The notes under the pieces were generated by a model, which saw nothing but the letters and a program-made list of their open reading frames with translations, made no database searches and had not been told where the DNA came from. Shown here in pieces: positions 1 through 29,475 of a stretch of DNA of 64,000 nucleotides (position 1 is its first letter; each line of letters begins with the position of its first letter). The stretch lies in the UHGV virus genome UHGV-1358930, one strand, 5' to 3'. Source of the DNA: a virus. Position numbers and translations under genes: made by a program.

Positions 1-709
1 AAATTCACCTGATGATATAATTGATTTCAAATATCCTCAGATATATCAATCGAAATTTGGAAAATACACTTATTGGTTCGGTTACAAGTTCAATGACACA
101 GTTTCCTCTAAAGACAGATCTAAGTTCTTGCACGCTATCAAAGGATTATCCGAAGATCAGATATCTGATAATGATATTGTTGACTTTATAGACAGGCCAA
201 TATTTGAGTTAGACAACTATATAAATACGTACAGCATATCTGCAGTTATTTACCCAGTATCTGGAAGAAGCAAGTTAGTTTCTAAAATAATAAGTGAAGT
301 AGGGAGATTCACTTCACATGATACAAAGAGGCTGTCGTTTGAGTTTGTTAAAAATATTCCAAATAAAATTGAATTTGATTGGGAGCAATTTGAATCCGAT
401 ACGTCGAATGATCTCAACAAATACAATCAAATGAAGAAATATGTAACAGAGGAATTGTTACCAGCTATTCATTCCTTAGATTACTTTTCTCTTGCAGAAA
501 ATGTGAAACCTAAATATCGAAAGTATATAAAAAACTATTTGGCATTGTCTGAATCAGATGTAGCTAAACTAGCTTCGTTAAAAGGTGAAACTGTTCTTAT
601 TATAGACGATATAAATACATCAGGTGCTACACTAGATGAGCTTGTCCGAAACATCAGACTACTAAATAACACGTGCAAGATTTTTATTTATACGCTTATC
701 GGTAAATAG
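1..709 (+). CDS. Phosphoribosyltransferase (type I PRTase) domain protein, 5' end truncated by window edge
   Basis: Reading frame is open from nt 2 to the stop at 709. The C-terminal motif VLIIDDINTSGATL is the classic PRPP-binding loop of type I PRTases. Confidence 0.55.
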   Translation, partial: NSPDDIIDFKYPQIYQSKFGKYTYWFGYKFNDTVSSKDRSKFLHAIKGLSEDQISDNDIVDFIDRPIFELDNYINTYSISAVIYPVSGRSKLVSKIISEVGRFTSHDTKRLSFEFVKNIPNKIEFDWEQFESDTSNDLNKYNQMKKYVTEELLPAIHSLDYFSLAENVKPKYRKYIKNYLALSESDVAKLASLKGETVLIIDDINTSGATLDELVRNIRLLNNTCKIFIYTLIGK

Positions 710-904
710 CGAACCAATCGTTAATTTATATAGTAACTTGACGAAGAGTATACTCAATATCGTGCACATGGAGTAAAAAAAATAACATTGACACATGCCG
801 ATGATCACATAGATAGAATACCGCTTGTGTTTTGTAAGAAACCTTGACACCCACAAGCCCAGCAGAAATGCTGAAATAAACAAAAATAAAAGGAGTTAAT
901 AATT

Positions 905-1654
905 ATGAGTAAATTACGAAAGATCATTGTTTCAGAAATTGAGGACTACAGAGTTCTCTTGCGCAATGCGCCAGCTGTTACAATGATCTTTTTCTGTGTG
1001 TCTGTTATCTTAATGAACCTATTTGCGTCTAAAGAGCTACTAAATATTGAATATTTAGGGCTAGATTGCGGATTTTTGCTATCATGGCTCAGTTTTCTTT
1101 GCATGGATATGCTGACAAAGCGATTTGGTGCAAAACCCGCGATCAAACTTTCATTGTTTGCTGTTTTCCTCAACTTGCTTACATGTATATTCTTCTTTAT
1201 AGTTGCACACATCGGAAACAACTGGGCAGCTTTCTATACATACGAAAATGACATTGCTAACTCCGCTATAAATGAAACAATCGGAGGTACCTGGTATGTG
1301 TTAGTGGGATCAATGACTGCTTTCGTTGTTTCGTCAATTGTAAACGCACTGCTAAATGAAGGAATTGGTAAATTAGTTAAGAGGAAAAATTTTGTCGAAT
1401 ACGCTCTTAGGTCATATGCTTCTACAATGATTGGTCAGTTTGTAGACAATCTTGTTTTTGCAAGCTTAGTATCTAAGATTTTCTTTGGGTGGACATGGAA
1501 GCAGGTAGTATTTTGCTCACTCGCTGGAGCTATCGCAGAACTTCTATCCGAAGTAATTTTCAGCCCGATCGGATTTAAAGTTTGCAAGAAATGGGAGAAG
1601 CACAATGTAGGCGCGGATTATATCAAGTACACGCTTAGCAAAGAAAGGAGATAA
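905..1654 (+). CDS. Integral membrane protein, candidate YhhQ/DUF165-type queuosine-precursor (preQ0/preQ1) transporter
   Basis: Start follows the RBS AAAGGAG. The protein is 249 aa with multiple hydrophobic helices. It sits directly upstream of queF in the que cluster. Family assignment is from memory of YhhQ-like proteins and was not computed. Confidence 0.45.
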   Translation: MSKLRKIIVSEIEDYRVLLRNAPAVTMIFFCVSVILMNLFASKELLNIEYLGLDCGFLLSWLSFLCMDMLTKRFGAKPAIKLSLFAVFLNLLTCIFFFIVAHIGNNWAAFYTYENDIANSAINETIGGTWYVLVGSMTAFVVSSIVNALLNEGIGKLVKRKNFVEYALRSYASTMIGQFVDNLVFASLVSKIFFGWTWKQVVFCSLAGAIAELLSEVIFSPIGFKVCKKWEKHNVGADYIKYTLSKERR

Positions 1655-1660
1655 TTAAAC

Positions 1661-2341
1661 ATGTCAAATAACAAAGGAGTAGTAGTTGTAACTGGATCTT
1701 CTGGAGGTATTGGAGAGGCCATATGTAAAAAATTTCTATCCGAGGGGTTTGAAGTTCACGGAATTGATGTAGTAACTCCTTCGACAGAACTTCTACATGA
1801 TTTAAACTTCTATTCACACATAAACGATATTAGAAATTCTAATGATCTGCCAGACATTGACAAAGTGGAGTACTTGATCAATTGTGCAGGTACTCAAAAT
1901 TCATACGATGATATCGGAAATAATCTTATCGGTCTAATGAATACTACAGAGAAATATGGACTTCAATATTGGATTAAATCAATTGTAAACATGGCATCTG
2001 TATCCGCGCACAACGGATGTGAATTTCCTAAATACGTCGCGTCTAAAGGTGGTGTGCTCGCTTATACTATATGGACAGCCAAAGAAATTGCTACATACGA
2101 GAATCACCCAACATGTAACAGCCTATCATTTGGCGGAGTACTGACAGCACTTAATTCGGAAGTTATCTGTGACAAAGAAAAGTTCAACAAGATTATGGAC
2201 ATGACTCCGTTAAGGAAGTGGGCTACAGCTGAAGAGTGTGCAGAATGGACATACTTCATCTCAGTTGTAAATAAATCAATGTCAGGACAAGATATCATTA
2301 TCGATAACATGGAAACTAGAAACAATCAGTTTGTTTGGTAA
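1661..2341 (+). CDS. Short-chain dehydrogenase/reductase (SDR) family oxidoreductase
   Basis: N-terminal Rossmann motif TGSSGGIGEAI. Catalytic Ser (MASVSA) and YxxxK (YVASK) are present. Confidence 0.7.
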   Translation: MSNNKGVVVVTGSSGGIGEAICKKFLSEGFEVHGIDVVTPSTELLHDLNFYSHINDIRNSNDLPDIDKVEYLINCAGTQNSYDDIGNNLIGLMNTTEKYGLQYWIKSIVNMASVSAHNGCEFPKYVASKGGVLAYTIWTAKEIATYENHPTCNSLSFGGVLTALNSEVICDKEKFNKIMDMTPLRKWATAEECAEWTYFISVVNKSMSGQDIIIDNMETRNNQFVW

Positions 2342-2413
2342 AGTATTCAAAGAGAGTTTTGTATTCCTTTGAAACCCTCTCTGAAAATAAAAATAATAAG
2401 GAGAAGTAAAAAA

Positions 2414-3925
2414 ATGCTAAAATCAAACAATGGAAGAACATCCGAAGACTTATCAGGAGTAACTCTACTTGGTAATAACAACACTGAGTACAACTACGAC
2501 TATACTCCAGAAGTTCTAGAAACATTTGTAAACAAGCATCCTGACAACGATTATGTTGTCACATTTGATGCTTATGAATTTACAAGCAAGTGTGTCACCG
2601 GAGACACTATGATAGATGTTGCATGTAATGAAACTGACAATCCGGATGGAATTCCAATCAAAGATTTGGTAGGTACAGAAGGATATGTGTTTTGTGTAGA
2701 TCCCACTACATTACAACCATTATGTAGGAAGTATCGAGATGTACGAAAGACTGGAGAAAGTGTACCTGTAGTTAAAGTACTCATGCAAAGTTTGAGAACA
2801 GATGGAAAGGGTAACACATACTATGAATCTTCTGAAATCAAGTGTACACCTGATCATATGATATTGGTGAAAAAAGGATTCCATGATAGCGAATGGGTGT
2901 GTGCAAAAGATCTCAAACCTGGCATGAGGTTGATTGCAAATCAAAGAAGTGGAGATGTAATACGATCTAAACTTCGACACAGACTTATTGGGGAAGCAAT
3001 TTTTGATGAAGATATTATGAATATTCATCATATAGACGGTAATCATTACAATAATGACCCATCTAATCTATCTAATTTATCTTCTCATGATCATCACCAT
3101 CTTCATAGATCTCAAGAATATGGATACGATAATTTAGATGTATCATACTTAGTTGATCTGTATAACTCCGGAGAAAACTTCAACTCCATAGCAAAGATGT
3201 TCAACTGTGATGTATCTACCATTGAATCTAGAATAGGTAATATAGTTGGAAGACGGACACAATCAGAGTCATTATCACTACGAAATAACTTGTTGAATAA
3301 AGAGCGGGATAGCGAAATCTGTGAATTGTACAACAAAGGATACTTGCTATCTGAAATTGCAGATTACTTAAATATCCACAGTACAACAGTGTTAGGAGCA
3401 CTAGAAAGACACGGCATCCCTCGCAGAGAATCGAACTTCTCTAGGTACAATCGAAAGAAATTGAACCTCCCACCATTGAATCATAAAGTACTAGCTGTAC
3501 TAGATGGTGGATATGAAGATGTGTACAACATGGAAGTAGAAGGAGTTGAAAACTATTTTGCCAATGAAGTGATAGTCCATAACTGCCCAAAAACGGGGCA
3601 GCCAGATTTTGCAAAAGTTGTAATTAGTTACATTCCTAATGAGAGAATGGTTGAAAGCAAGTCCCTAAAGCTTTACCTCTTTTCTTTCCGCAATCATGGA
3701 GATTTCCACGAAGACTGCATGAACATCATCATGAAGGATCTAATTCATCTTATGGATCCGAAGTACATTGAAGTAAAAGGTATTTTTTCTCCAAGAGGAG
3801 GTATCTCCATCTTTCCCTTTGTTAACTACGCGAATCCGAAATTTAATTATCAGGATTTTGCAAAGTCTCGAATGCTGGAGGCGCTTAGAGATTCGAGCAA
3901 TAGAACAGTAAGATACGATATGTGA
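2414..3925 (+). CDS. queF: NADPH-dependent 7-cyano-7-deazaguanine (preQ0) reductase QueF, interrupted by an intein (precursor ORF)
   Basis: Exteins match B. subtilis QueF: GVTLLGN...PEVLETF...EFTS|[70 protein letters not shown] precedes the ATG at 2414. The ORF finder started 45 nt further upstream. Confidence 0.85.
2591..3583 (+). mobile_element. Intein (331 aa) with HNH homing-endonuclease and HTH modules inserted in QueF
   Basis: Begins [10 protein letters not shown] and ends VIVHN, followed by the +1 residue C of CPKTGQ. An internal HNH motif [11 protein letters not shown]...HDHHHLH is present, plus two sigma-region-4-like HTH repeats. Confidence 0.8.
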
Positions 3926-4023
3926 AACAACGGGAAGATATAAATATAGTAAAGTCTGTAGATACGTACAGCAAAAAAAAGCAGCAAACTCTAGAATAGA
4001 TTACAATTACTTAGAAAGGTTAG

Positions 4024-4767
4024 ATGAAAATGGAAAACAAAAGAAATTCAAACAAAAAAGCGTTGGTGCTCTCGTCAGGTGGAGTAGACTCCACTACTTG
4101 CGTAGGTATTGCTGTAAATGAATTAGGTTCTGAAAATGTTAGCACTGTATCGGTGTTTTATGGACAGAAACACAATAAAGAACTTGAATGCGCTGAAAAA
4201 GTAGCTGAATTTTATAATGTAAAGCACTATGTTCTTGACTTGTCTAATGTCCTTCAGTACAGCAACTGTTCTCTAATGAAGAACAGCACAGAAGAAATCC
4301 CTATGATGAGCTACGCAGAGCAGATTGAAAAGAATGGTAAACCATCAACAGAAGTTCCATTGAGAAATGGACTCATGCTCATGGCAGTTGGCTCATTAGC
4401 TATGCAACTTTATCCAGAAGCTGATGTCGATATTTACATTGGAGCACATGCCGATGATGCTGCAGGTAATGCTTATCCAGATTGCTCTGCAGAATTCATT
4501 CAAAACGTAAAAGAAGCAATATTGATTGGATCTAGATATAAAGTTAACTTAGTTTCTCCATTTGTGAATCATAACAAATCAGAAGTTGTTAAATTAGGGT
4601 TATCTATAGGTGCTCCGTATGAATTAACAACTTCCTGTTACAATGGCAGAGAGAAAGCTTGTGGATTGTGTGGAACCTGCAGAGATCGTATAGCTGCATT
4701 CAAAGCAAACAATGCAATTGACCCAATTGAATATGAAATTGACGACCCATTCAAAGAAATGCGATGA
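4024..4767 (+). CDS. queC: 7-cyano-7-deazaguanine synthase QueC
   Basis: PP-loop motif [14 protein letters not shown]-terminal zinc motif CGLCGTC. Confidence 0.85.
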
Positions 4768-4774
4768 TGTTCAA

Positions 4775-5371
4775 ATGGAAATATGGCGACCTGCTAAAGG
4801 ATATGAAGATAAATATGAGGTGAGCAATTTAGGACGAGTAAGAAATTCAAAGCATTATATCATGAAACCACATCTACAAGATGATGGATATCTTTGGATA
4901 TACCTTGCGTCTAAAACTAGTCCTAACAACACATCAATTCATAGGCTAGTTGCTAAAACGTTTATTCCGAATCCAGAAGGCAAACCGCAAGTAAATCACA
5001 TAGACGGGAACAAAACAAATAATCGAGTTGAGAATCTAGAATGGGTTACAGGATCTGAAAATGTTAAACATGCTTATGCCAATAATCTAATTGCAGACAA
5101 ATCTCCTGAAGGCATCAGAAATATTGTAGCAGCAGCTAGAAAATCATTGAAGAAATATTGCAACATCCCGATAATATGTGAAACTACAGGGCAAGAGTTT
5201 GAATCTATTCATCATGCTGCACTACATTATGATGTAGACGATACCACTATTCAAAACATCGTAAGAAATGTAACAAAAAGATCCAGAAAACTACCTGGAT
5301 TGAAATTTAGATTCAAATATCCAGAGATTACTTGTAGATCACCTCATAGAAAGAAACATTTAATTAAATAG
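4775..5371 (+). CDS. Free-standing HNH homing endonuclease (NUMOD4/HNH_3 type)
   Basis: NLGRVRN...[35 protein letters not shown]. Wedged between queC and queD. The ATG at 4775 is the likely start; the ORF finder began at 4712 inside queC. Confidence 0.75.
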
Positions 5372-5381
5372 CTTTGGAGGA

Positions 5382-5825
5382 ATGAGAATGTATACAGTAA
5401 AAACAAAAGTATCTTTTGAAGCTGCGCATCGTCTATACAATGTAGACACATACTCAAAAGAATGCAGAGATAATCTCCATGGGCACTCATACAAAGTAGA
5501 AATTGTCGTAGGCGCAGATAACTTGAACTCTGCTGGAATGGTTATTGATTTCAAGCTGCTAAAAACAGTTATTCGAGAAGAGATTGAATCTAAATATGAT
5601 CATTCTTGTATATTGAGAAAATGCGATCCAATTGCAAATACTATCAAGGAAAACTGTAAGAAAGTTATCCTTGTTGACGAAAGTCCTACTGCAGAATGGA
5701 TGGCAAAAGAATTCTATGACATGATTGAATCTAAAGTTCATACGTATTCTTCTGATTTACATGTTGTTTCAATTGGAGTACAAGAAACAGAAAATAACAT
5801 TGCGTATTATCTTCCGGAGGAATAA
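5382..5825 (+). CDS. queD: 6-carboxy-5,6,7,8-tetrahydropterin synthase QueD
   Basis: PTPS-family motif ECRDNLHGHSYKVEIVV. Good RBS GGAGGAATGAGA. Confidence 0.85.
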   Translation: MRMYTVKTKVSFEAAHRLYNVDTYSKECRDNLHGHSYKVEIVVGADNLNSAGMVIDFKLLKTVIREEIESKYDHSCILRKCDPIANTIKENCKKVILVDESPTAEWMAKEFYDMIESKVHTYSSDLHVVSIGVQETENNIAYYLPEE

Positions 5826-5827
5826 AC

Positions 5828-6469
5828 ATGAAAGTTATCGAATTATTTAATAGTATTGATGGAGAGGGCAAACGAGCTGGTATGCTCGCTACGTTTATAC
5901 GTCTGTCTACGTGCAATCTTAGATGCAGTTACTGCGATTCCGCTTACGCTTTCGATGATAAGCTTGCTGAAGAGATGTCAATTCAAAGTATTGTAGCAAA
6001 CTGCGACAAATATGATTGTCCGCAAATTACGCTAACTGGTGGAGAGCCTTTGATTTCCAGAGACGTAGAGCTACTTTTATCCGAACTTGATTCTCATGGA
6101 TATGACGTCAATGTGGAAACAAATGGGTCTATTGATCCATCCGCATATCATAAATACAAAAATGTTTGGTTCACAATTGACTGGAAATGCCCTTCTAGCG
6201 GTATGGAGTCAAAAATGAATCCGAAAGCATTTGAAACACTTCGTGAGCAGGATGTACTAAAATTCGTAGTAGGGTCAAATGAGGACTTACAAGATGCGTT
6301 ACACGTCATCAAGAAGTACAACCCAAAATGCTCAATCTATTTCAGTCCGGTATTTGGATATGATGCAAAAAATATCGTAGAATTCATGAAAGATCACAAA
6401 CTGAATGATTGCAAAGTTCAGCTTCAAATTCATAAGTATATCTATGACCCGAATGCTAGAGGAGTATGA
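5828..6469 (+). CDS. queE: 7-carboxy-7-deazaguanine synthase QueE (radical SAM)
   Basis: Radical-SAM cluster motif [10 protein letters not shown]. The N-terminus resembles QueE. Confidence 0.85.
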
Positions 6470-7062
6470 TCAAAGAAGGTGTTGATATGAAAAATATTGA
6501 TAAAAACAAAATTGAAAAGCTGACAAGAGAGCTCTTAGTAGCTTTAGGCGATGATCCTGACAGAGAAGGGTTGAAGAAGACTCCAAGTCGAGTTGCAAGA
6601 ATGTGTGATGAATTATTTGAAGGTATGACACATTCGAATCACGAGATAGCTGAAATGTTCAATACATGTTTTGAAGATGTAAAAACTGGAGATCTTGTAG
6701 TGGAGAGCAATATTCCGATTCACTCCTGCTGCGAACATCATCTCATGCTGATGTATGATATGTCAGTAGCTATTGGATACATTCCAAATGGTAAAGTTAT
6801 CGGATTATCTAAGCTTGCTAGAATTTCTGACATGGTTGGAAAGCGACTTCAGTTGCAAGAACGAATCGGTTCAGATATCGCAGATATTCTCCACGAAATT
6901 CTCAATACCAATGACATCATTGTTGTCATTCAAGGAAAGCACGGATGCATGACAGCACGCGGCATTAAATCAAGAGAAGCAATAACTCGAACAGCTACAC
7001 TTAGAGGAAGATTTGAGTCAGATTCAGATCTACGATCCGAATTCTATTCTCTCATCAAATAA
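6466..7062 (+). CDS. folE: GTP cyclohydrolase I FolE
   Basis: Motifs HSCCEHHLM and downstream [10 protein letters not shown]. The start may be the second ATG at 6487. Confidence 0.85.
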
Positions 7063-7101
7063 CTTACTTCTGGATACAGATAAGTAGATTGAATCGTTAA
7101 T

Positions 7102-7140
7102 GTAGACGTACTAAACTATAGTGCGTCTACAATTTTATAT
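7102..7140 (+). terminator. Rho-independent terminator after folE
   Basis: GTAGACG...CGTCTAC 7-bp stem followed by AATTTTATAT. Confidence 0.55.
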
Positions 7141-7188
7141 ACTTAGTTAAATTTTACGAAAATAATCTAAAGAAATGAGGTCAAATAA

Positions 7189-7800
7189 TTGAAAAAGCTG
7201 ATTAGATCTTCAACAACTGCTGTATATTCAACGCAGATCGCACCAAAAATATTAGAAATTTGGATTGTAGATGATGTTCGGCACTGCAGCGCATCCATAG
7301 CAGCTGCAGACGAAACTGCCGAAACTCGTGAAGGGCTAGAAACAGAGAAAACATCACAAAATAAAAATTCTAGAATAAGACGAATTGAGCCAAGTGCTGA
7401 TATCGAAGAATTTCTAAATAGTATGAAGAAAGCTCCTATTCTATTTATAGAAAGATCTGCAAAAAATTCGGCATTTTTGAAGTTATATAAAACATTATCT
7501 GGAAAATTGTTTGATGTGGCTGTAGCAAAAGAACTTCTGAATCAGCTTACAGTTTCTGATTATGTATATACTACGGAAAGTGATTCAGCTAATTACAAAG
7601 GAGATGAGTTAATTGTATTTGAACCTGTGCATGATCTAGTATCTAGAAAAAATGGAGTTGTATTGAAAAATGTCGTAATCTATATGAAAATAGATAAAAC
7701 AGAGTCAAACGAAGATGAGACAGTTTTAGTATCATTTCATTCCGCTGAATTTGAAGATGACAAACCGTATAGTTCTGCGAACAACAAGGAGGATAGATGA
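7189..7800 (+). CDS. Hypothetical protein (TTG start)
   Basis: 203-aa ORF following RBS AAATGAGG. No recognisable motifs. Confidence 0.5.
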   Translation: MKKLIRSSTTAVYSTQIAPKILEIWIVDDVRHCSASIAAADETAETREGLETEKTSQNKNSRIRRIEPSADIEEFLNSMKKAPILFIERSAKNSAFLKLYKTLSGKLFDVAVAKELLNQLTVSDYVYTTESDSANYKGDELIVFEPVHDLVSRKNGVVLKNVVIYMKIDKTESNEDETVLVSFHSAEFEDDKPYSSANNKEDR

Positions 7801-8276
7801 GGTACATGAAAATTTTTGCATTTGCGGATAAGAAAGATAGCATCAAAGACAAATTGAAAGAGAAATCAGATGATTTAGTATATCACCTCGTGAAAGTATT
7901 TTTGTTCCCTAACTGCGAAGTGAAACCTCACTGGTGTCAAGAAATCTACGGATTTATTCACAGCGTACCTAAAACTAAAAACAAGAATAAGTTCCCAGAC
8001 AAGACTTTCATCTTCAATAACACTTACGAAATCTGGGGAGATACAATTGAATCCTGTATCATAACTGCTATAAAGGATTATCCTAGTATAGTGCCATTAT
8101 TTGATCAGCACACCGGGTTAGCTATCTGCGAAACTGCAGTTAGAGAGTATTTTGAATGGTTATCTGAGGAGCTATCTAGTATCGGAAGAGTCGCATCTTC
8201 AGATGTATACAAGAAGATTGATGAGCTAATCGAAGAAGTAGTTCAAAAATTGAATAACACAACATATGCACTATAA
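7797..8276 (+). CDS. Hypothetical protein
   Basis: 159-aa ORF overlapping the upstream stop by 4 nt (translational coupling). Confidence 0.5.
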   Translation: MRYMKIFAFADKKDSIKDKLKEKSDDLVYHLVKVFLFPNCEVKPHWCQEIYGFIHSVPKTKNKNKFPDKTFIFNNTYEIWGDTIESCIITAIKDYPSIVPLFDQHTGLAICETAVREYFEWLSEELSSIGRVASSDVYKKIDELIEEVVQKLNNTTYAL

Positions 8277-8326
8277 GGAAAAGAAATCTGAACTGAATCA
8301 TCAAAACGATAGGAATAAAGGAGAAT

Positions 8327-8803
8327 TTGCTTATGTATGTTAGGAAAATTATGACAGACACAACAAAGCATGCAATGGAGACATTGATGCGAAACATTGG
8401 AGGACCGTTTGGAGCTGCAATTGTTAAAAACGGAGAAGTAATCTGTGTAGAATCAAATTCGGTGTTAAGGGATAAAGACCCAACAGCACATGCGGAAATG
8501 AATGCTATTCGATCTGCATGCAGAAAGTTGAAGACTTACGATCTAAGTGACTGCGAATTGTATGCAACTGGCAGCCCTTGTCCTATGTGCTTAAGTGCAA
8601 TAATCTGGGCAAATATCAAGACAGTATACTATTCTGGTACGTACGAAGATTGCAAGAAGATTGGATTTAGAGATGACTTCATTTTCAATTTCATCAAGAA
8701 TGATTGCAAGAACGATGATATTGTTAAACTAGAATTGCATGACAATGATCTGGCAAATACATTGTACAACGCATATGAAACATTCTCAGGAGAATTATAC
8801 TAA
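8327..8803 (+). CDS. CDA-fold zinc deaminase (TadA/GuaD/dCMP-deaminase-like)
   Basis: HAEMNAI ... GSPCPMCLSAI = H(A)E ... PCxxC zinc-deaminase signature. Size is 158 aa. Confidence 0.65.
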   Translation: MLMYVRKIMTDTTKHAMETLMRNIGGPFGAAIVKNGEVICVESNSVLRDKDPTAHAEMNAIRSACRKLKTYDLSDCELYATGSPCPMCLSAIIWANIKTVYYSGTYEDCKKIGFRDDFIFNFIKNDCKNDDIVKLELHDNDLANTLYNAYETFSGELY

Positions 8804-8805
8804 CA

Positions 8806-9203
8806 TGTACAGCATGCAAACTTCAGAATTTAATCTAACTGAACACTTGAAACGATACGTCAATTACACAGAGGTTATAATCTTTCCAGACGGACACATT
8901 GAATATGCGATTCCTTCGCACCAAGAGAAACTTATTTCTATATTGTGTAGTATGGAGCACAAATCGCGACAACAAGTTATAGACGAAACACCCCCAGAAT
9001 ATTATTTTGATTGGCTGAACTATTTACTCAATAAAACAGGATGTATTTCGGTTTGGTTTGATTTCATCATCACTACAAATCGCATGACAGATGCGCAAAA
9101 CGACACAATTATCAACTTGATACAATCTGGAGCAGTGCGATTAGACAAGAATAAGAATGAACCTAATATTTATTTGAAATATAGCAAATATGCAAGAAAG
9201 TGA
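8806..9203 (+). CDS. Hypothetical protein
   Basis: ORF with RBS AGGAGAATTATACTAAC before the ATG at 8806. The longer ORF-finder version overlaps the preceding gene. Confidence 0.5.
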
Positions 9204-10169: not shown

Positions 10170-10823
10170 ATGGATGTAGTAAAGAATATGCGTGGAAGTA
10201 TTTGGTGGTTGAAAGACGAATTTGATAAATACAAAGGTGAAAGAGGCATCCTTAGAGGTTCTAGGCCGGTTATCATTATGAATAATCCAGCAAACGAATA
10301 TAATGATTGCACTATTACATATTTGCCGATTTCTAAGTGCGAATCTCATGCTGGTGATGATAGTCGAATTCAAATGTTTTATCAGGTACCTATTCAGATT
10401 CCTGGTAATAAATCTAGTTATGTATGTTGTAATAGCATCATGACTACAACTACTTCTCATCTTGGAGAATATGTTGGGCAGATTTCAGAAGATAAGCTAA
10501 AAGAAGTCGAAGCCGAATTGATGCGTTATCTTTCTCTTTCTGAAAAAGTCGTTACACGAGAAGTAATAAAAGAGGTTAGGGATACAGACAAGGCAACGAA
10601 AACAACTTCTTTTTCTATTACAGACGCTGTCGCTTGTCCAGAACTCAAAAAAGTATATTCTAGTTGTACTGAAATGGCTAAAGATCTTAACTGCTCTCCT
10701 GCGTCTATCAGCAAGTCGAGTAGATGGGGAAGTAAGCTGATGCACAAATACACAGTGTTTAAAGTAGCAACGGCTGCTGGAAACTATGTTTGCAAAACTA
10801 AGGAGGAAATCAAAAATGAGTGA
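10170..10823 (+). CDS. MazF/PemK-fold endoribonuclease-like toxin domain fused to a ~100-aa C-terminal extension
   Basis: The N-terminal 120 aa align to MazF/Kid: IWWLKDEFD.YKGERGILRGSRPVIIMNNP...CTITYLPIS ... TTTSHLGEYVGQISEDKLKEVEAEL. The C-terminal part is HTH-like (ACPELKKVYSSCTEMAKDLNCSPASISK). Confidence 0.55.
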   Translation: MDVVKNMRGSIWWLKDEFDKYKGERGILRGSRPVIIMNNPANEYNDCTITYLPISKCESHAGDDSRIQMFYQVPIQIPGNKSSYVCCNSIMTTTTSHLGEYVGQISEDKLKEVEAELMRYLSLSEKVVTREVIKEVRDTDKATKTTSFSITDAVACPELKKVYSSCTEMAKDLNCSPASISKSSRWGSKLMHKYTVFKVATAAGNYVCKTKEEIKNE

Positions 10824-12601: not shown

Positions 12602-13782
12602 TTTCTAGCACTCCCGTATCAATTGATGAAATTCTGAAATATTGAAATATTTAATAAACTGAGTAATGTGTAGAATATTGTGAAAACTGAAAATATGAAC
12701 CTTTGTTAATCTTACATGTAGAGGTATGTTTAAATCTACAAATATATTATATGAACTTAGTTAGCAGAAGTCAATGTAAATTAGCCAATTCATATCAAAA
12801 TTTTTATTGAAATCAGCAGATTTTCAGAATTTTGAAGTTTTACACAATTTGATCTAACTATAAAGCTAGATAGGAAATAACTATAACAAGCTGTTTGGCA
12901 TATAGATATGTTATAGCGAGACTTGAATAGCACTATAAGATAAATAACACGAACTTATCGCAATATCCGAAATTTAGAAATATTGAAGATTTGTGTATGG
13001 ATCATCTTAAACATTGAAATCTACAAAATCTACAATATCTGAAATTTTGAGATATTGTAAATTTGAATACTTTAACATACGTATATTGAATGTGCTTAAA
13101 AGATTAAATTTTCGTAAATTATTTTATTTATAGTTAAAATTTATGATTTGTTAATAGTTATAAACAGTATAAAAGTGATCTATTATTATAAGTGTCACCG
13201 TCTAGGTATATATGTATTCAATATATCATATAGTAGATATGTAAGTATTATATATCAAGCACATATCAAAATACTATAGCAAACTAAGTTATATAGGTAA
13301 TCCCTATATCAAGGTGTAATCTATATACAGTAATCCCTCACAGCGTAAGTTGAGCATAAACAATGAAATTGAGACATGTAGATATATTATCGCTATATAT
13401 CTAAACAAATTGATATAGTATTGACATATAGAGAATCACGTGATATTATAGCAAAACTTCATGGTTATGAAACTTCTATGTAACAAAATCAGTCAGAAAC
13501 CACCAAAATTTGAATATTTCAGAATATTGAAATTTCAATAATATGTAAATTTTACAATCTTTCAGAATCGTGAATATTTCAAAATATGAAAATTTCAACT
13601 TTCCGCTAAAATCACCAGAATTTAGTAAAATTGAAAGAATATGAAAATTTGATGCCTTCAATCTTTCAGAATCTGGTCATTTGGCCGCTTTAATATTATT
13701 AAAGAAATTAAAGTAATTAAAGTTATAATGTTATTAAAGTTATTTTAAAGGAATTAGCCAATTAAAGTAAAAAAGAATTAAA
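12602..13782. repeat. AT-rich ORF-free region with arrays of degenerate repeats (TTCAGAAT / TTGAAAT family and a TTAAAG iteron block)
   Basis: At least 7 copies of [T/C]TTCAGAAT-N2-4-TTGAAAT-like units lie near 12631, 12822, 12965, 13040, 13508-13600 and 13615-13670. Seven TTAAAG(T) units sit within 13695-13790. Confidence 0.5.
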
Positions 13783-13819
13783 GTAAAAACTCGCAAGCTC
13801 GTTTTTACTTTTTGGTTTG
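13783..13819 (+). terminator. Rho-independent terminator inside the noncoding region
   Basis: GTAAAAAC-tcgcaagctc-GTTTTTAC perfect 8-bp stem followed by TTTTTGGTTTG. No upstream + strand ORF, so it would terminate a noncoding transcript. Confidence 0.55.
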
Positions 13820-14119
13820 TAATCTGAGAACATAAATTCTGTCAGTAGATACCTCTATGCTGAAACGCATTGACGTACTTTTATGCGATCATGCGAAACA
13901 CATAGACGTGGGCGTGACCTAAACACTACAGTTGATACTGCACATGGTCGGTTCAAACTACGTAGTAGTTGAATTTTTGAGTAATTTGGTGGCGCTTGCG
14001 TTGAATATCTGTCTTCGTCTCGTGTATGCAACGCACGTATGAGTCTCATATGCAAAAAAAATATTCGCCAGCGCATTGGCAAATATCTGTTAGATTTCAA
14101 AAATTTATAAAATTCGGGG

Positions 14120-14148
14120 TTGACTTTTTGAAGCAGATACCTTATACT
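14120..14148 (+). promoter_or_regulatory. Sigma-A-type promoter (TTGACT-17-TATACT)
   Basis: TTGACT at 14120-14125, a 17-nt spacer, then TATACT at 14143-14148. Confidence 0.6.
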
Positions 14149-14154
14149 ATGGGT

Positions 14155-14615
14155 GTAGGTTCACCTAACAAGTTAAAACTCAGTTGAGCGTAGCACCTCG
14201 ACTACTTACTACTTCTGCTAGGCAGCTTCATGATAGAGTCAGCGCAAGATCGTCGAAGCAGGTAACTTGTTAGAAACCGAATCGTTAATGTACTTAGCAA
14301 ACCGCCACCAGGTAACTCCTATCGAGCTTGAAATTGAATAATCTCAAGATTGGTCAACAAAATCTTCTTTCAGAAGAGGCGCCAGTTTTGTACTCATCTT
14401 CTACTCACTTTTCGATAGGGGTGCTGGTAGTTGCTAAGCTATCAGTTTAGGTTTGCTAAAGTAGAAATAATCATCTACGTGAATTAGCCGGTATCTAGAG
14501 GTCGCTACTCGACGGTACGACGTTGTAGCATGCGTAGAAGCTGCAGCTGATGTGATGAGTGCAAAACTGACGCCTTTCTTTTGTTTATTTAGTAGTTCGG
14601 AGGGCTAAAGCATAC
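14155..14615 (+). other. Untranslated ~460-nt leader, candidate structured RNA
   Basis: No ORF between the promoter and the ATG at 14616. Local GC is higher than the flanks. There is a long-range complementarity: CCTAACAAGTTA at 14170 pairs with TAACTTGTTAG at 14262. Confidence 0.3.
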
Positions 14616-17302: not shown

Positions 17303-17879
17303 TTGTATATATACACCATATTGTACATACAAACAATGCGACTTAGCTTGTCCTAATAGAGCTGAAGTGAATTGTTGGTTCAAACGATGCCGACTTGATA
17401 TGTCAAATAATTGCTTGCATACTAATATCCGAAATATTGAGAAAGCCGAGGATCTACTAAGTAACAAGTATGGAGAAACTGTGTGGTTTCCCACAGATAA
17501 TCCTTCAGATGCAAGCGACACTATTTGCTACGTAGCTATTTGCAAATATGGTAAAGGTACTGCTCTTGGAAACGGAATATACAATCTGGATTTTGCAAAA
17601 TTTATAGATATGATCAAGGAGTCCTGGAATACGCATTTTGAAACAGATAACTTAATTCAGATGCGTGTGTGGTCTTTGTCTGCAAATTACCTAGTTATCT
17701 CAAATCTAGATTATGTTAGATTTCAAGATTTTGAAAGTCAAACGTTGCTAAGGCTTCTGAATGATCGAAGAGATTATACAAAGACAACTGTAGTAGTTAC
17801 TAGTAAAGAACCTTTGGTCGGCAGCGGAAATTTCTTTCCTAGATTGACTTCTTTGCTAAAGGGGGTCAAGAGCAATTGA
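17295..17879 (+). CDS. Hypothetical Cys-rich protein (possible replication accessory or helicase-loader candidate)
   Basis: N-terminal Cys cluster CIYTPYCTYKQCDLACPNRAEVNCWFKRC. Translationally coupled to the helicase gene. Confidence 0.45.
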   Translation: MHDCIYTPYCTYKQCDLACPNRAEVNCWFKRCRLDMSNNCLHTNIRNIEKAEDLLSNKYGETVWFPTDNPSDASDTICYVAICKYGKGTALGNGIYNLDFAKFIDMIKESWNTHFETDNLIQMRVWSLSANYLVISNLDYVRFQDFESQTLLRLLNDRRDYTKTTVVVTSKEPLVGSGNFFPRLTSLLKGVKSN

Positions 17880-20299
17880 CGAATTCAGTAGAACTTCAAG
17901 TTATTTGTAAAATTTTAACAAGTCAAGATGATTCTGAAATTGATAGGCTGTGTGCGTTTGATGAATCCTATTACGCAGTATTCAAAGATCAGATCAAATT
18001 TATTCTAGATCATAGAGAAAAATATCATACTGTCCCAGACTTGTTTACGTTCCAAGCTCAATTCGAAGACATTGTTTTGATTGATGTAAACGAATCTGCA
18101 GATTTTTTAGTAGACGGACTTCGGAAAAACAAGCAGCAGATCATACTCTTACAAACATTCAATAAGCTATCTGAGTTAGGTTCTGCAGACGTTTCTGAAG
18201 CTTGGCAGTTCTTACAATCCCAATGCGACAAAGCTGCTCAACTTGATAATTCTAACCCGATGGATATCATCAAAGAAGCTCACAAGCGAAGTGATCAAGT
18301 TTTATCGCTAAGTAATCAAACAAGAATTCCTACAGGATTCAAAGAAGTAGATGAAACAATGTATGGAGGATTGTCAACTGTTGAAGAACTTTGTCTTGTA
18401 GTTGCTAGAACTAACACAGGTAAAGCTCAGCCTCTTTGGAGTAATATCTTAACACCTACTGGGTGGAAGCGTATGCGAGATATTCAAGTAGGAGACATTG
18501 TATGCGGTAGAGATAATGACAATGGTAAAGTAGTTCAAATATTTCCGCAAGGTACAATTGACTACTATCGTGTAAAGTTTGATGATGGTACTTATACGGA
18601 GTGTTCTGCAGATCATCTTTGGGAAGTTCTGGATAGTGAACGAAGGAAGCATGATAGAAAAACTTATGGTCAGTATCTTACATTGACTACTCGAGATATT
18701 CGGAATCATATGTATCGCAGATACTCTGTTGATATGTGTGAACAAATTGAATTCGAGAGTGCTTTTGATACAGATAGTGAACTTGACGGATATTTTTTAG
18801 GAGCATTTATCGGGCATGGTAGAAATGTAGGTAACAAGCTATATATTCATTCTCTGTCCGATGTTTCAAAGCGACGTATAATTGATGCATTGTCTAAATA
18901 TCGTTGTCAATTCACAGAAAATGATCCAAATACACTCGTGATTGAGGATAAGAATGATGGTAAGCTTATCCAAAAGATGTTCGAGTACAACTTGATGAAC
19001 TGCAAAGTCATTGATAGACATATTCCGGATATATATTTTCATAGCCCTGTAAATGTTAGAAAAGCTCTGTTATCAGGTCTCTGCGATACAGATAGCACAA
19101 TGTTATCAAAAAATCATAGAGGTTGGGTTTTCGTTACATCTTCAGATCAGCTTAAATCTGATTTTGTTTACATTGCTAGATCTTTAGGTGTAAAAGCAAA
19201 GGTGTCGACTGCAAGATCTGGTAGATGGGTTGACTTAGGTGTATCGCACGTTGCGAATACGTACCACAGGGTTATGTGTATCTCAAAATTCAATCCGTTT
19301 TATGGTTCACCAAATTACACAGAATTTGAACGCAGACAGGATAAAACTAAATTTAAAAATCGCAAGCGTGTTTGCAAATTCATTGATTCTATTGAATACG
19401 TAGGTAAGACGGAATGCCAGTGTATCATGGTAGACAATAAGACGCATACATATATTACAGATGATTTTATTGTCACACATAACACCTGGGTTACTACTAA
19501 GATGATGGAGTCTGCACAAGCGAATGGATTTCCTGTACTATATTATAGCCCAGAGATGCAATCTGCTTTCATTGGCACACGATTTGATACCTGGAGAGGT
19601 CACTTCCGAAATAGCGATATTCAACGAGGTAAATACAGCGAAGACTACATTCAGTACATCAAAGACATTGTTAAAGAGGAAACTGGTGCATTTGTTGCAG
19701 AAGACAAAGATATGCCAGGAGGAAAAACAACTGTCAGGTCGATTGAAACTCTAGTCAAGCGACATCATATAAAGCTTGTTATCATTGATGGTCTGTCTTA
19801 TATGGCAGATACAGAAAAGTCTGATAGCGATGTTATTAAGTATAAAAATATATGTACTGGACTATTCCGAATGTCTAAAACATATGGATGTGCTGTAGTA
19901 GTATCTGTACAAGCTAATAGAGACACTAAATCTAATGTCGATGACAAAGGAGTCCCGTGGCCTGATATGTATTCGATTGAAGGCTCAGACCATCCAGGAC
20001 GTATTGCAACTCAAGTATTTGCGCTTCGACAATTGTACGAAGAGCATACATTAGAGATAAAGCTGTTGAAGACTAGAAATGCAAAGAATGCAAATCCTAC
20101 GTTCGCATATGTATGGGATCCAAATACAGGAAACACAGAGTTTGTTTCGGATGATGCATCGGCTGCTCCTCCTTCTGCTCCTGCACAGCCTAGCAAGTTC
20201 TCAACGCCGACAGTGTCAGCAAAGATTGTACACACCGATATAGATGATAATCTAATCGATGCCAGTACAGATGACGATCTAGATGACGTTGAGTTTTGA
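17876..20299 (+). CDS. dnaB: DnaB-like replicative DNA helicase, interrupted by an intein (precursor ORF)
   Basis: Exteins read IPTGFKEVDETMYGGL..ELCLVVARTNTGK | TWVTTKMMESAQANGFPVLYYSPEMQ, i.e. Walker A GK|T split exactly by the insertion. Downstream DnaB motifs are KLVIIDGLSYM and SVQANR. The acidic C-terminal tail is DDDLDDVEF. Confidence 0.8.
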   Translation: MTNSVELQVICKILTSQDDSEIDRLCAFDESYYAVFKDQIKFILDHREKYHTVPDLFTFQAQFEDIVLIDVNESADFLVDGLRKNKQQIILLQTFNKLSELGSADVSEAWQFLQSQCDKAAQLDNSNPMDIIKEAHKRSDQVLSLSNQTRIPTGFKEVDETMYGGLSTVEELCLVVARTNTGKAQPLWSNILTPTGWKRMRDIQVGDIVCGRDNDNGKVVQIFPQGTIDYYRVKFDDGTYTECSADHLWEVLDSERRKHDRKTYGQYLTLTTRDIRNHMYRRYSVDMCEQIEFESAFDTDSELDGYFLGAFIGHGRNVGNKLYIHSLSDVSKRRIIDALSKYRCQFTENDPNTLVIEDKNDGKLIQKMFEYNLMNCKVIDRHIPDIYFHSPVNVRKALLSGLCDTDSTMLSKNHRGWVFVTSSDQLKSDFVYIARSLGVKAKVSTARSGRWVDLGVSHVANTYHRVMCISKFNPFYGSPNYTEFERRQDKTKFKNRKRVCKFIDSIEYVGKTECQCIMVDNKTHTYITDDFIVTHNTWVTTKMMESAQANGFPVLYYSPEMQSAFIGTRFDTWRGHFRNSDIQRGKYSEDYIQYIKDIVKEETGAFVAEDKDMPGGKTTVRSIETLVKRHHIKLVIIDGLSYMADTEKSDSDVIKYKNICTGLFRMSKTYGCAVVVSVQANRDTKSNVDDKGVPWPDMYSIEGSDHPGRIATQVFALRQLYEEHTLEIKLLKTRNAKNANPTFAYVWDPNTGNTEFVSDDASAAPPSAPAQPSKFSTPTVSAKIVHTDIDDNLIDASTDDDLDDVEF
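18425..19483 (+). mobile_element. Class-3-type intein (353 aa) with LAGLIDADG endonuclease domain in DnaB
   Basis: Starts with Ala (AQPLWSNILTPTGW) directly after GK of the P-loop. Ends FIVTHN followed by +1 Thr. The block B segment SADHLW, the Cys in block F (ECQCIMVD) and the Thr before HN form the WCT triad. LGAFIGHG and LSGLCDTDS are LAGLIDADG motifs. Confidence 0.75.
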
Positions 20300-20514: not shown

Positions 20515-21651
20515 TTAGGAGAAAGCTATTCTCAAGCCCTCGTTCAATATATTCTTTGATGCATTGATATCTCTATCATGTGTTGTTTGACAATTAGGAC
20601 AAGTCCAATTTCTAACTTCAAGATTTTTGACTTCTGGATTTTTGAATCCGCAACAGCTACAAGTTTGAGAAGACGGAAAGAAGGCGTCTATTTTGACAAG
20701 TTGTTTTCCATACCAGCTGCACTTGTAAGTCAATAGTTCAACGAATTTTGACCAGCTTGCGTCTGAAATTGCTCTTGCTAGTTTATGATTCTTGACCATA
20801 TTTTTGACTTTCAAGTCTTCAACACAGATTATGTCGTGGTTTTTGACAAATTCTGTTGACAGCTTGTGCAAGAAATCATTTCGTTGATTTGAAACTTTCT
20901 CAAATTGTTTAGCAAGTCTGATTCTTGATTTGTTTCTGTTATTAGATCCTTTTTGCTTCTTCGAGAGCTGTCTTTGAAGTCTTCTTAACTTCTTAGTAGA
21001 CTTTGAAAGGTATTTCGGATTTTTGATCTTTTCACCGTCTGAAGTTATTGCGAAATCTTTGATGCCGAGGTCAATTCCTACAACAGATCCAGTTTTGTCA
21101 AACTCTTCAATTTCAACATCTTTGCAACAGATACTTGCAAAATATTTTCCTGAAGCTGTTTTTGAGATGGTTGCCGAAAGCGGAGTTCCTTTGACATTTA
21201 AATTTCCTTTGAATTTAACCCATTTCAATTTAGGCAAGAAGATCTTGTTATCTAAACAATGAAATTGTGCAGGTGTGGAGTATGTAGCCTTATATGACTG
21301 TCTACTTGAAAGTTTCTTCTTAAATTTAGGATAACCTGGTTGCTTTCCATTCTTTACGTTTCTAAAGAAGTTTTGATACGCAGTATCAAGATCTCTAAGA
21401 GACGATTGCAAAGCCATTGCTTCAGGTTCTTTCAACCATGAATATTCGTCAAGCTTCTTGAGCTTTGTTAAATCTGCAGAATTTTGATTATATGTATTTG
21501 ACTTTCTTGCCTCTTCATAATCTTTGATGGATTTAGCAAGATAGTAGTTGTAGACAAATCTGCAGCAGCCAAAGGTTTTTGCAATTTGCTCAATCTGCTG
21601 CTTGTTCGGATATATCCGTATTTTATAAGCTTTCAGAATCATTTTGGTCAT
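20515..21651 (-). CDS. tnpB: TnpB (OrfB) RNA-guided-nuclease-family transposon protein
   Basis: N-terminus [32 protein letters not shown] is the OrfB_IS605 signature. RuvC-like and Zn-finger C-terminus [11 protein letters not shown]...[17 protein letters not shown]. Confidence 0.85.
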
Positions 21652-22243
21652 CTGAAAGTGCCTCCTTGATTTTAGCTACGCTTCTCTTAGAATACATTTT
21701 CATTGAGTAACAGTGCAGTAAACTTACGATTTCTTCAAAAATTTCTTCAGAATCAAGTTTTTCGGATCCTAGTTGGGACGCAACAACTATCTCTGTTCCA
21801 AATTTTCTAAAAAGATGATAAAATAGATCAAATCCTACTCTAGACAGTCTGTCTTTATAATTGATAACTACTTTCTCAACTTTATATTCCAATACATCGT
21901 CTAATAGTTCAAAAAACTGTTTTCTGTTTTCAAAAGAAATTCCGGAAGCAACCTCTTGAAAAACACCATCGACTTGAATTCCGGAATTCATGCAAAAACT
22001 GTTCAAAGATTCAAGTTGGTTCGCTAGATCCGATTTTTGAGATATTGTAGAAACTCTAGCGTAGATATAATTTTTTCTTGTTTGACCGTTATTTAATATA
22101 GAGTAGACGTCTTTATCATGATAGATGCGCTTACCTGTAGGTGTTAAGTCATAATGAATGAGTCCTCTTTTGCAATAATGACCAAGTGTTGGCTGTGAAA
22201 TATTCAATAGTTGTAACACTTGTTTAGCTTTCATATTGATCAC
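21623..22243 (-). CDS. tnpA: IS607-type TnpA serine recombinase
   Basis: N-terminal MerR-like [25 protein letters not shown]. Resolvase catalytic motif [11 protein letters not shown]. Overlaps the tnpB start. Confidence 0.8.
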
Positions 22244-25165: not shown

Positions 25166-25858
25166 ATGGCTAAGAGAATCAGATTCAACGATATTTCCCG
25201 TTTCGACAAAAACAACAGAAGAAGAATTGCTCATGGCTCAGATCCTATTCCGGTTGTTAGACCCTTCCGTGCAGCGTATCTGATGTTCCGTGACTATCTC
25301 GATTATGACAGACCGCTGACTTATAATGAATGGATGAATCGTCTGGAATCAGATAAGGCAGCGGCTTTATATGTTCAGTTCTACGATCAGATTCAGCTTG
25401 CTTGGTACAAAGCAAAAAGCTTCTATGCTGTTGAAGAAGATGGCGTGTCTACAATGATGCAATATCTTATGAAGAATGTTCCTGTCATCAACAAAGACGA
25501 AAAGCGCTTCACACCTCGTTATATATATCGTGTAGCTTACAACTGCTTGTATTGCATCTGTCATGACATCAAAGTTGATAAAGACAGATGGGAGTTAGAG
25601 AGCAGCAATATTACATCTAATTCCGATGAAGAAGAAGTAGATGTGTTCAATTTCATTCCGTCTAATTTTGACATTGAGCGAATGATGAATGAAGAAAAAT
25701 TCTGGAAGGCTATCATGTCTCAAGACGAAGATACAATTACATATGTGGATTGCGTCATCAATCATACAAGATTTCCTGCGGGTATGAAAGCTAGAAGTCC
25801 TAAGATCATCGCAAAGTTAAAGGTAGTTCTTTCAGAACTGGCTGATGAGGAGTTCTAA
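25166..25858 (+). CDS. Hypothetical protein
   Basis: RBS GGAGG sits 8 nt before the ATG at 25166. The ORF-finder start at 25151 is a TTG inside the RBS. Confidence 0.5.
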   Translation: MAKRIRFNDISRFDKNNRRRIAHGSDPIPVVRPFRAAYLMFRDYLDYDRPLTYNEWMNRLESDKAAALYVQFYDQIQLAWYKAKSFYAVEEDGVSTMMQYLMKNVPVINKDEKRFTPRYIYRVAYNCLYCICHDIKVDKDRWELESSNITSNSDEEEVDVFNFIPSNFDIERMMNEEKFWKAIMSQDEDTITYVDCVINHTRFPAGMKARSPKIIAKLKVVLSELADEEF

Positions 25859-25859
25859 A

Positions 25860-29382: not shown

Positions 29383-29475
29383 AACCTGATGAATATCCCG
29401 TCGCATGCGGTTGATATTCGACATATGTTCAGAGCAACTCCCCAGAAAGATTACACAGTTGAATCAGAAGTAGAT
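29383..29475 (+). CDS. polA: polA exon 2 (about 93-nt micro-exon, boundaries approximate)
   Basis: Encodes NLMNIPSHAVDIRHMFRATPQKDYTVESEVD, which aligns to NLQNIPVRT..GRRIRRAF.APE.YV.VSAD and ends at the motif-A catalytic Asp. Confidence 0.6.

Follow-up and report, generated by a model that had tools for sequence, protein, structure and literature searches.

An intein at the catalytic cysteine of QueF in a predicted Dp-1-type 7-deazaguanine DNA modification system of an uncultured large gut phage

The window analyzed here is a stretch of 64,000 nucleotides from the virus genome UHGV-1358930, and it holds a Dp-1-like DpdA1/preQ1 system of an uncultured large gut phage. Genes for making the 7-deazaguanine bases preQ0 and preQ1 lie at the start of the window, and dpdA, the gene of a DNA-guanine transglycosylase, closes the replication module 35 kb away from this que cluster. 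The system is probably of the type known from Streptococcus phage Dp-1, in which the phage DNA would carry 2′-deoxy-7-aminomethyl-7-deazaguanine (dPreQ1) made by DpdA and by a QueF that is spliced from an intein-containing precursor. The original prediction had proposed 7-deazaguanine modification with dPreQ1 as the most likely product. As a prediction this is supported by the full set of enzymes from GTP through preQ0 to preQ1, with their family signatures, and by a DpdA1-lineage gene with the fold of tRNA-guanine transglycosylase (TGT) and the catalytic residues. The genes of the system are the following.

2414-2590, plus strand: N-extein of queF, 59 codons, ending in ...YEFTSK; together with the C-extein it aligns without gaps to 4F8B.
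2591-3583, plus strand: class-1 intein of 331 residues with HNH homing endonuclease and helix-turn-helix (HTH) domains (PF14890, 1.8e-11; HNH_3; HTH_38).
3584-3925, plus strand: C-extein of queF, starting CPKTGQPDF... with the catalytic Cys as its first residue, stop codon included.
4024-4767, plus strand: queC, preQ0 synthase (PF06508, 1e-52; TIGR00364, 157.4 against a cut-off of 150.3).
5382-5825, plus strand: queD, 6-carboxytetrahydropterin synthase, T-fold (PF01242, 3e-27; TIGR03367, 84.3 bits against a cut-off of 89.25).
5828-6469, plus strand: queE, radical S-adenosylmethionine 7-carboxy-7-deazaguanine synthase, Clostridial type (TIGR03963, 260.8 against 260.1; phrog_2076, 3e-45).
6466-7062, plus strand: folE, GTP cyclohydrolase I (PF01227, 2e-62; TIGR00063, 187 bits against 181.6).
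42095-43060, plus strand: dpdA, DNA-guanine transglycosylase of the phage DpdA1 lineage (Dp-1-like), 321 residues.

FolE, QueD, QueE, and QueC, together with QueF, catalyze the steps of the well-established queuosine pathway. Pfam and NCBIfam matches placed all five genes on the plus strand where the original prediction had them, and FolE, QueE, and QueC score above their equivalog cut-offs in NCBIfam. An alternative start for queC lies at 4030, which is the one called in L008, a 108-kb contig that matches the window at 100% identity over 12.3 kb. Positions 1-7131 hold, all on the plus strand, nine genes with short gaps between them and the 3′ end of one more, with the order transporter, short-chain dehydrogenase/reductase (SDR), queF, queC, HNH, queD, queE, folE. 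The operon had been drawn from 1 to 7062; its pathway genes stand, and positions 1-709 drop out of it as the 3′ part of a phosphoribosyltransferase-like gene that is not a pathway gene. The earlier gene calls are correct as far as they go, with a Vut_1/YhhQ transporter, the SDR, and a NUMOD4/HNH gene left unmentioned. The identity of queF and the location of dpdA also stand, and what had been overlooked is the 331-codon HNH intein inside the queF open reading frame (ORF) and a free-standing HNH gene upstream of dpdA.

The queF ORF spans 2369-3925 and matches PF14489 (1.8e-32). Its likely start is the ATG at 2414, which is preceded by AGGAG and gives 503 codons including the 331 codons of the intein. 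Only the ends of the ORF match QueF, and its middle matches the Intein_splicing, HNH_3, and HTH families. The insert has the features that define a class-1 intein, namely Cys1 (CVTGDTM...), a block B TPDH (...CTPDH...), a C-terminal ...VIVHN, and Cys+1, and it resembles the mini-inteins of DnaX and DnaB. In silico excision of 2591-3583 leaves a 172-residue unimodular QueF that aligns without gaps to Bacillus subtilis QueF (4F8B; E = 7.6e-67) and scores 165.7 against a cut-off of 86.9 for TIGR03139, the preQ1 synthase family. QueF enzymes are defined by Cys55, Asp62, Glu97, and the motif E(S/L)K(S/A)hK(L/Y)(Y/F/W) with Glu78 (PMC5372742, PMC10516641). In the spliced window protein, Cys55, Asp62, Glu78 in the motif ESKSLKLY, Glu97, and the protective Cys99 are identical (B. 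subtilis numbering). The intein is inserted directly 5′ of the codon for the Cys55 equivalent. Because the +1 residue of the intein is Cys55 itself, the thioimide-forming nucleophile of QueF, the unspliced precursor cannot be active. The conserved intein residues and the existence of an exact intein-free allele predict that the intein is competent for splicing.

Natural alleles fix the boundaries of the intein. Exact intein-free queF alleles occur in the sister contigs L009-L011, and in L009 and L011, whose flanks are 97-99% identical to the window, queF has 172 codons and its product is identical to the predicted spliced QueF at 172 of 172 residues. The intein boundaries are confirmed, since the natural 172-amino acid alleles equal the predicted spliced product. 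The intein-less site reads …TACGAATTTACGTCAAAG before and TGCCCAAAAACG… after the insertion point. Spliced window queF differs from the L011 allele at 6 nucleotides, five of which fall within the 16 nucleotides just 5′ of the junction, and these five are all synonymous. The 18-nucleotide 5′ flank of the intein is the same in the window and in contig L003, and differs from the intein-less alleles at five synonymous positions. The L003 intein differs from that of the window at 6 of 993 nucleotides (99.4% nucleotide and 99.7% amino acid identity), whereas L003 is otherwise divergent, with Que proteins 19-69% and QueF exteins 68-85% identical. A near-identical intein in a divergent phage and the common recoded flank indicate recent homing with a short co-conversion tract, and this is clear evidence that the QueF intein is horizontally mobile and that homing is ongoing.

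Among the best 120 QueF-family clusters, 97 have an insert at the same site, and every one of the 97 ends in HN before a C-P-x-T motif. Cys1 is present in 52 of the 52 inserts with a parsed N-terminal junction. These parsed inserts fall into mini-inteins of 139-183 residues (n = 10) and endonuclease forms of 328-341 residues (n = 41), with one insert of 246 residues. Phage class-1 inteins with nested homing endonucleases, such as those of DnaB, DnaX, and terminase, are like the QueF intein in Cys1, TxxH, HN, and Cys+1, in insertion at a catalytic residue within a conserved motif, in presence/absence polymorphism, and in their evidence of homing. The QueF intein differs from them in its host protein, a nitrile reductase, and in having an HNH-type nested endonuclease. 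The literature searched yielded no account of a QueF intein, and this intein is the new element here, a single-site family at the catalytic cysteine.

The second component of the system, DpdA, matches PHROG 887 (1e-41) and has no match in Pfam, the TGT family PF01702 included. The best tblastn match was Bacillus phage Flasso (38% identity, 1e-49), with Dp-1 gp7 (39%, 2e-42) and 163 further phage records also found. More than 600 metagenomic homologues were detected, on contigs of up to 159 kb among the matches listed, and an exhaustive profile search with DpdA reached 2470 cluster representatives. Assignment of the protein needed fold comparison and a broader profile (A3), as a PDB sequence search with profile A1 returned chance matches only and hhalign of profile A2 against Escherichia coli TGT gave a probability of 0.2%, with the DSG(A/G)F motif still aligned. 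The protein has a TGT-type (β/α)8 barrel that is nearer to DpdA and TGT than to other TIM barrels, and in structure it matches the DNA enzyme DpdA best, rather than a tRNA TGT. The three active-site aspartates are present as D57, D93, and D216. In DpdA of Salmonella Montevideo the invariant aspartates are Asp95, Asp130, and Asp256, which serve in general acid/base catalysis, in base recognition, and as the nucleophile. The check proposed for the 42095-43060 product, a comparison with TGT and DpdA, thus found both the fold and the catalytic Asp residues.

DpdA1 and DpdA2 are distinguished by a conserved histidine at about position 196 of phage 9g DpdA that is missing in DpdA2 (PMC6884629). The hhalign comparison of profile A3 with 9g DpdA (probability 100%, E = 8.6e-40) places window H197, in KTHLYG, on the KVHGFG of 9g. 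The window DpdA family, which has no invariant Cys and no CxCxxC, lacks the cluster of Zn-binding cysteines found in TGT and bacterial DpdA, and Dp-1 gp7, with a single Cys, likewise has no such cluster. With no Zn site, no C-terminal insertion or subdomain of the TGT and bacterial DpdA kind, and no PF01702 match, the protein is filed under phage DpdA1 and not under bacterial DpdA or TGT. The bacterial enzyme of S. Montevideo (PDB 7UI4) depends on DpdB and ATP, contains a Zn site and the large insertion Ins8, and belongs to a restriction system, and none of these was seen in the window.

The fold and setting of DpdA also bear on the alternative that the genes serve the queuosine of host or phage tRNA, with the TGT-fold protein acting on RNA. 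The que genes are the bacterial pathway to the precursors of tRNA queuosine, homologues of the protein are annotated 'queuine tRNA-ribosyltransferase' in databases, and de novo preQ0 synthesis is often missing in gut Firmicutes (PMC6884629). This role is nonetheless highly improbable given the structural match to a DNA enzyme, the missing Pfam TGT match and Zn subdomain, the location of dpdA in the DNA-replication module, and the homology to DpdA of 9g and Dp-1, two phages with modified DNA. The window encodes 0 tRNAs by tRNA scan, and QueA, QueG, and QueH are not present.

In the relative L016, dpdA adjoins the 3′ side of the clamp-loader gene with nothing between them. In the window the two genes are separated by one ORF, which is an insertion because it is absent from L016.

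41406-41927, plus strand: free-standing HNH-type endonuclease, similar to the NUMOD4/HNH ORF at 4775-5371, between the clamp-loader gene and dpdA.

A plus-strand gene at 43074-43637, 13 nucleotides 3′ of dpdA, matches the N-terminal domain of dATP/dGTP diphosphohydrolase (PF18909, 2e-10) and phrog_801. It was considered as a conserved partner of dpdA and rejected, as no such gene is recorded beside dpdA in L016, and its product is probably a general nucleotide-pool enzyme.

The closest studied system is that of Dp-1, whose cluster encodes QueF (gp1), QueC (gp2), QueD (gp3), QueE (gp4), FolE (gp5), QueT (gp6), and DpdA (gp7) (Hutinet et al. 2019, PMC6884629), with gp7 placed under DpdA and not DpdA2 (Hutinet et al. 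2019). Dp-1 and the window have in common seven functions, a unimodular Bacillus-type QueF, a precursor transporter, DpdA proteins of one DpdA1 lineage that are 35-39% identical, and related replication modules with a Cas4-like nuclease, RecA/UvsX, and DnaX-type clamp loaders. They differ in the 35-kb distance of dpdA from the que cluster, in the transporter (YhhQ/Vut_1 in the window, QueT in Dp-1), in the queF intein, the extra SDR, and the phosphoribosyltransferase-like and HNH genes of the window, and in a QueD motif of C-x4-HGH rather than C-x3-HGH. The window comes from a large contractile-tailed gut-metagenome phage with related contigs of up to 167 kb, whereas Dp-1 is a 56-kb siphovirus. 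Bacillus phage Flasso (MZ357961), the best tblastn match for DpdA, is annotated with queC-queD-queE-folE-queF and a 'queuosine tRNA-ribosyltransferase', and resembles the window in its replication module and in having all the genes for preQ1. Flasso differs in that its genes adjoin one another, dpdA lying some 2 kb downstream, and in that no intein, transporter, or SDR is annotated; no data on modification of Flasso DNA were found in the literature searched. The DpdA1 systems of phages 9g and CAjan (dG+ and dPreQ0, the deoxynucleosides of archaeosine and preQ0) are without QueF and insert preQ0, unlike the window. For specialists in 7-deazaguanines, the prediction of preQ1 modification is expected rather than surprising.

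We infer the splicing of QueF, the use of preQ1 by DpdA, the modification of DNA with its extent and motif, and an effect against restriction. FolE, QueD, QueE, and QueC would convert host GTP into the free base preQ0. The QueF precursor with its 331-residue intein would splice itself, yielding a unimodular NADPH-dependent nitrile reductase of 172 residues, and this enzyme would then reduce preQ0 to preQ1 with NADPH. The YhhQ-type transporter may bring in further preQ0 or preQ1, salvaged from the surroundings of the cell. After replication, DpdA would replace part of the guanine in phage DNA with preQ1, and probably with some preQ0, by the double displacement of TGT, in which D216 would be the nucleophile, D57 the general acid/base, and D93 the residue that reads the base. 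The resulting dPreQ1 would hinder host restriction enzymes. Because DpdA1 enzymes replace 0.1-30% of G (PMC10516641), partial rather than complete modification is expected. In Dp-1 DNA, dPreQ1 amounts to 3389 per 10^6 nucleotides, or some 1.7% of the G, with no dG+ and with dPreQ0 below 6 per 10^6 (PMC6884629). Phage QueFs are true preQ0 reductases that complement an E. coli queF deletion, and direct insertion of preQ1 is on record for at least one phage DpdA, the DpdA2 of VH7D (PMC10516641).

One alternative concerns the choice of base, in that the DNA could mainly contain dPreQ0 or a mixture of dPreQ0 and dPreQ1, through the preference of DpdA1 or an intein-limited QueF, with preQ1 going mainly to queuosine in host tRNA. 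All DpdA1 enzymes assayed insert preQ0, DpdA2 of phage VH7D is promiscuous, inserting preQ1 directly and preferring it over preQ0 and then 7-carboxy-7-deazaguanine (PMC10516641), and the QueF precursor is inactive before splicing. We regard this outcome as quite unlikely, since Dp-1, with a DpdA that is 35-39% identical, has dPreQ1 and the dPreQ0 content given above. All QueF catalytic residues are kept across the clade and all splicing residues of the intein are kept, and the intein-free alleles of sister phages show that the QueF enzyme is itself under selection.

A more speculative extension is that the intein acts as a conditional switch, for example a redox- or stage-dependent one, at the redox-sensitive Cys55 and sets the ratio of preQ0 to preQ1, and/or that the transporter-SDR pair, with the phosphoribosyltransferase-like gene, turns a salvaged queuosine-related compound of the gut into a 7-deazaguanine not yet seen in DNA. 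We hold this to be doubtful. If true, the intein switch would decide which 7-deazaguanine enters the DNA.

Several points weigh against a Dp-1-type dPreQ1 system. Every DpdA1 assayed biochemically inserts preQ0, and the phiSM DpdA1, the sole tested one from a phage that encodes QueF, was inactive in E. coli (PMC10516641). With phiSM DpdA1 inactive and the others using preQ0, DpdA1 may take preQ1 directly or QueF may act after insertion. The unspliced QueF precursor is inactive and active QueF needs splicing, an SDR of no assigned role is embedded in the cluster, and DpdA, like that of Dp-1, has no Zn-binding cluster of cysteines such as bacterial DpdA and TGT have. Finally, QueD is just under its NCBIfam cut-off (84.3 against 89.25) and has the shifted cysteine C-x4-HGH. 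This motif, with the cysteine shifted by one, is found in the window, L003, and L006, and C-x3-HGH is found in Dp-1 and Flasso. The role of QueD is supported by a Pfam score for 6-pyruvoyltetrahydropterin synthase (PTPS) far over the cut-off and by its location between queC and queE. The shifted cysteine is reportedly tolerated by PTPS-I, as described by Phillips et al. in 2012.

Processing of dPreQ1 to a further derivative was considered in the same context. DpdM (DUF3109/YkgJ), DpdN (PF00551), DpdL, the ArcS core, and Gat-QueC were sought by Pfam and PHROG scans of all plus-strand ORFs of at least 90 amino acids and three long minus-strand ORFs, and none was found in the 64-kb window. A second T-fold/PTPS-like protein is encoded in the replication module at 25845-26285 on the plus strand (PF01242, 25.4 bits against a cut-off of 22.4). 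It was rejected as a DpdL candidate, as it has L-x3-HAY in place of the DpdL motif LxxxHRHxF; the protein is degenerate, without the Cys and second His of QueD, and has no tblastn match in cultured phages.

It is unlikely that dPreQ1 is converted to mdPreQ1, fdPreQ1, or an undescribed derivative, whether by an enzyme encoded outside the window or by the SDR and/or the phosphoribosyltransferase-like protein. No DUF3109, PF00551, ArcS, or GATase domain occurs in window ORFs of at least 90 amino acids, and Dp-1, the closest studied phage, ends at dPreQ1 (PMC6884629). There are precedents for such a step in Flavobacterium phage immuto, which is complete from FolE to QueF and holds fdPreQ1 and no dPreQ1 owing to DpdN, and in phiSM, which makes mdPreQ1 through DpdM (PMC10516641). 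The window is also only part of a genome that, judged from L008, extends at least 44 kb beyond it and that has close relatives on contigs of 161-167 kb, and an apparently active SDR, whose family recurs in over 100 protein clusters from phage-sized contigs, lies between the transporter and queF. This SDR is, however, missing from the que-complete contigs L003-L005 and is paired with Vut_1 without nearby que genes in L013.

The remaining features of the cluster are the following.

1-709, plus strand: phosphoribosyltransferase-like gene, truncated at the window start to its 3′ part (PF00156, 25.7 bits, just under the cut-off; phosphoribosyl pyrophosphate-loop motif IIDDINTSGATL).
905-1654, plus strand: transporter of the Vut_1/YhhQ family for the queuosine precursors preQ0/preQ1 (PF02592, 1.2e-22, 81.3 bits against 27.2).
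1661-2341, plus strand: SDR (adh_short, 4e-13; TGxxxGIG, Ser, and YxxxK motifs visible).
4775-5371, plus strand: free-standing NUMOD4/HNH_3 homing endonuclease between queC and queD (NUMOD4, 1e-12; HNH_3, 2e-11; phrog_59, 9e-53).
7101-7131, plus strand: terminator-like hairpin closing the cluster, a 13-base pair stem followed by a T-rich tail.

The phosphoribosyltransferase-like protein has 259 amino acids in L008 and no match in the PDB, and its place is taken by an unannotated ORF of 163 amino acids in L009 and L003. The transporter scores 43.3 bits for TIGR00697, under the cut-off of 50.95, and every relative examined has it directly 5′ of either queF or the SDR; phage-encoded YhhQ homologues have already been catalogued. 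Attempts to name the SDR with NCBIfam and the PDB returned generic SDR matches only. The SDR gene is present in L006-L011 and not in L003-L005, and its family repeatedly stands beside Vut_1 on contigs of 118-192 kb. In L013 the SDR (7001-7669) adjoins Vut_1 with no que genes nearby, and in L014 the SDR (also 7001-7669) is part of an array of Vut_1-amidase (PF01425)-Vut_1, SDR, and QueF. The SDR is not a core pathway step, because it is missing from the que-complete L003-L005 and occurs with Vut_1 without que genes in L013. Recurrence of the Vut_1-SDR pair suggests an uncharacterized module that salvages or converts a queuosine-related compound. L008 and L009 both have the HNH gene between queC and queD, which is absent there from L010, L011, and L003 and found ahead of queC in L006; the intein and the HNH genes are mobile. 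Assignment of the hairpin at 7101-7131 rests on its position and stem length, as the total of terminator-like sites was not above the shuffled expectation in the scanned region. A promoter scan was not above background. No preQ1 riboswitch or other Rfam family was detected at gathering thresholds in the whole window, and no relevant family appeared between 600 and 2500 at E values up to 1.

The window is phage DNA. Its replication module encodes a DnaB-type helicase carrying a LAGLIDADG insert, a primase, a polymerase of family A divided among several ORFs, a Cas4-like nuclease, clamp loaders of the DnaX type, and RecA, and its morphogenesis genes include portal, tail sheath, and tail tube. 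The replication genes resemble those of Dp-1 and Flasso. A megablast search of GenBank phages with positions 1-9000 gave 0 matches, indicating that there is no cultured close relative. Near-identical and related contigs of 54-167 kb were found in public metagenome assemblies, several of which we take from their sample labels to be human-gut metagenomes, and the order yhhQ-queF-queC-queD-queE-folE is kept in these relatives. The exact window QueC sequence has no record in the contig index.

The genome is unusually rich in selfish elements, which include the DnaB insert, a polymerase gene broken up by HNH and GIY-YIG genes, an IS607-like TnpA/TnpB pair, and the free-standing HNH genes. The helicase at 17876-20299 (plus strand) has DnaB_C at residues 540-738 and a LAGLIDADG 'Hom_end' match at residues 383-448, and this insert is probably a second intein in the genome. 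The family-A polymerase occupies at least three ORFs in 27208-34412 (plus strand), at 27208-28539 (exonuclease and N-terminal polymerase), 32045-33571, and 33747-34412, and between them lie HNH (28597-29289) and GIY-YIG (29821-30564 and 31253-31957) genes. No group I intron was detected in the polymerase region by Rfam at the gathering threshold, and the broken-up polymerase could be a split gene or contain unrecognized introns or further inteins. The IS607-like pair, at 20515-22243 on the minus strand within the replication module, consists of TnpA (Resolvase and MerR HTH) and TnpB (OrfB_IS605 and Cas12f-like TNB), and related TnpB copies occur elsewhere in the sister contigs L009 and L010. 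Large homing endonuclease-like ORFs lie between the sheath and tube genes at 55931-58069 (plus strand; phrog_3339, 1.5e-118) and 60756-62414 (minus strand; 2.3e-86), the latter with a weak match to the PHROG 'Mom-like DNA modification protein' (8.6e-08).

Two smaller genes are kept in the sister contigs. The ORF at 8327-8803 (plus strand), about 1.2 kb 3′ of folE, encodes a zinc deaminase of the cytidine deaminase fold (dCMP_cyt_deam_1, 3e-24; TadA-like, 5e-17) that could be a nucleotide or base deaminase, and the ORF at 10170-10823 (plus strand) encodes a PemK/MazF-like toxin domain fused with a NUMOD1 motif. The roughly 2 kb from 12602 to 14615 contain no ORF of at least 90 amino acids on either strand, no tRNA, and no Rfam family at the gathering threshold.

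The window broadens the range of the Dp-1-type dPreQ1 system to large human-gut phages of a widespread, uncultured clade; many of the more than 600 DpdA homologues lie on contigs of 110-170 kb. Restriction-resistant DNA in such phages would affect the inference of host range, restriction-based libraries, and nanopore base-calling. Moderate and testable novelty comes from the QueF intein and from the pairing of SDR and transporter. The QueF intein is a clean natural case of an intein in a metabolic enzyme, and with its endonuclease and mini forms, its intein-free sister alleles, and a near-identical copy in a divergent phage, it is suited to the study of homing between phages and of splicing-gated DNA hypermodification.

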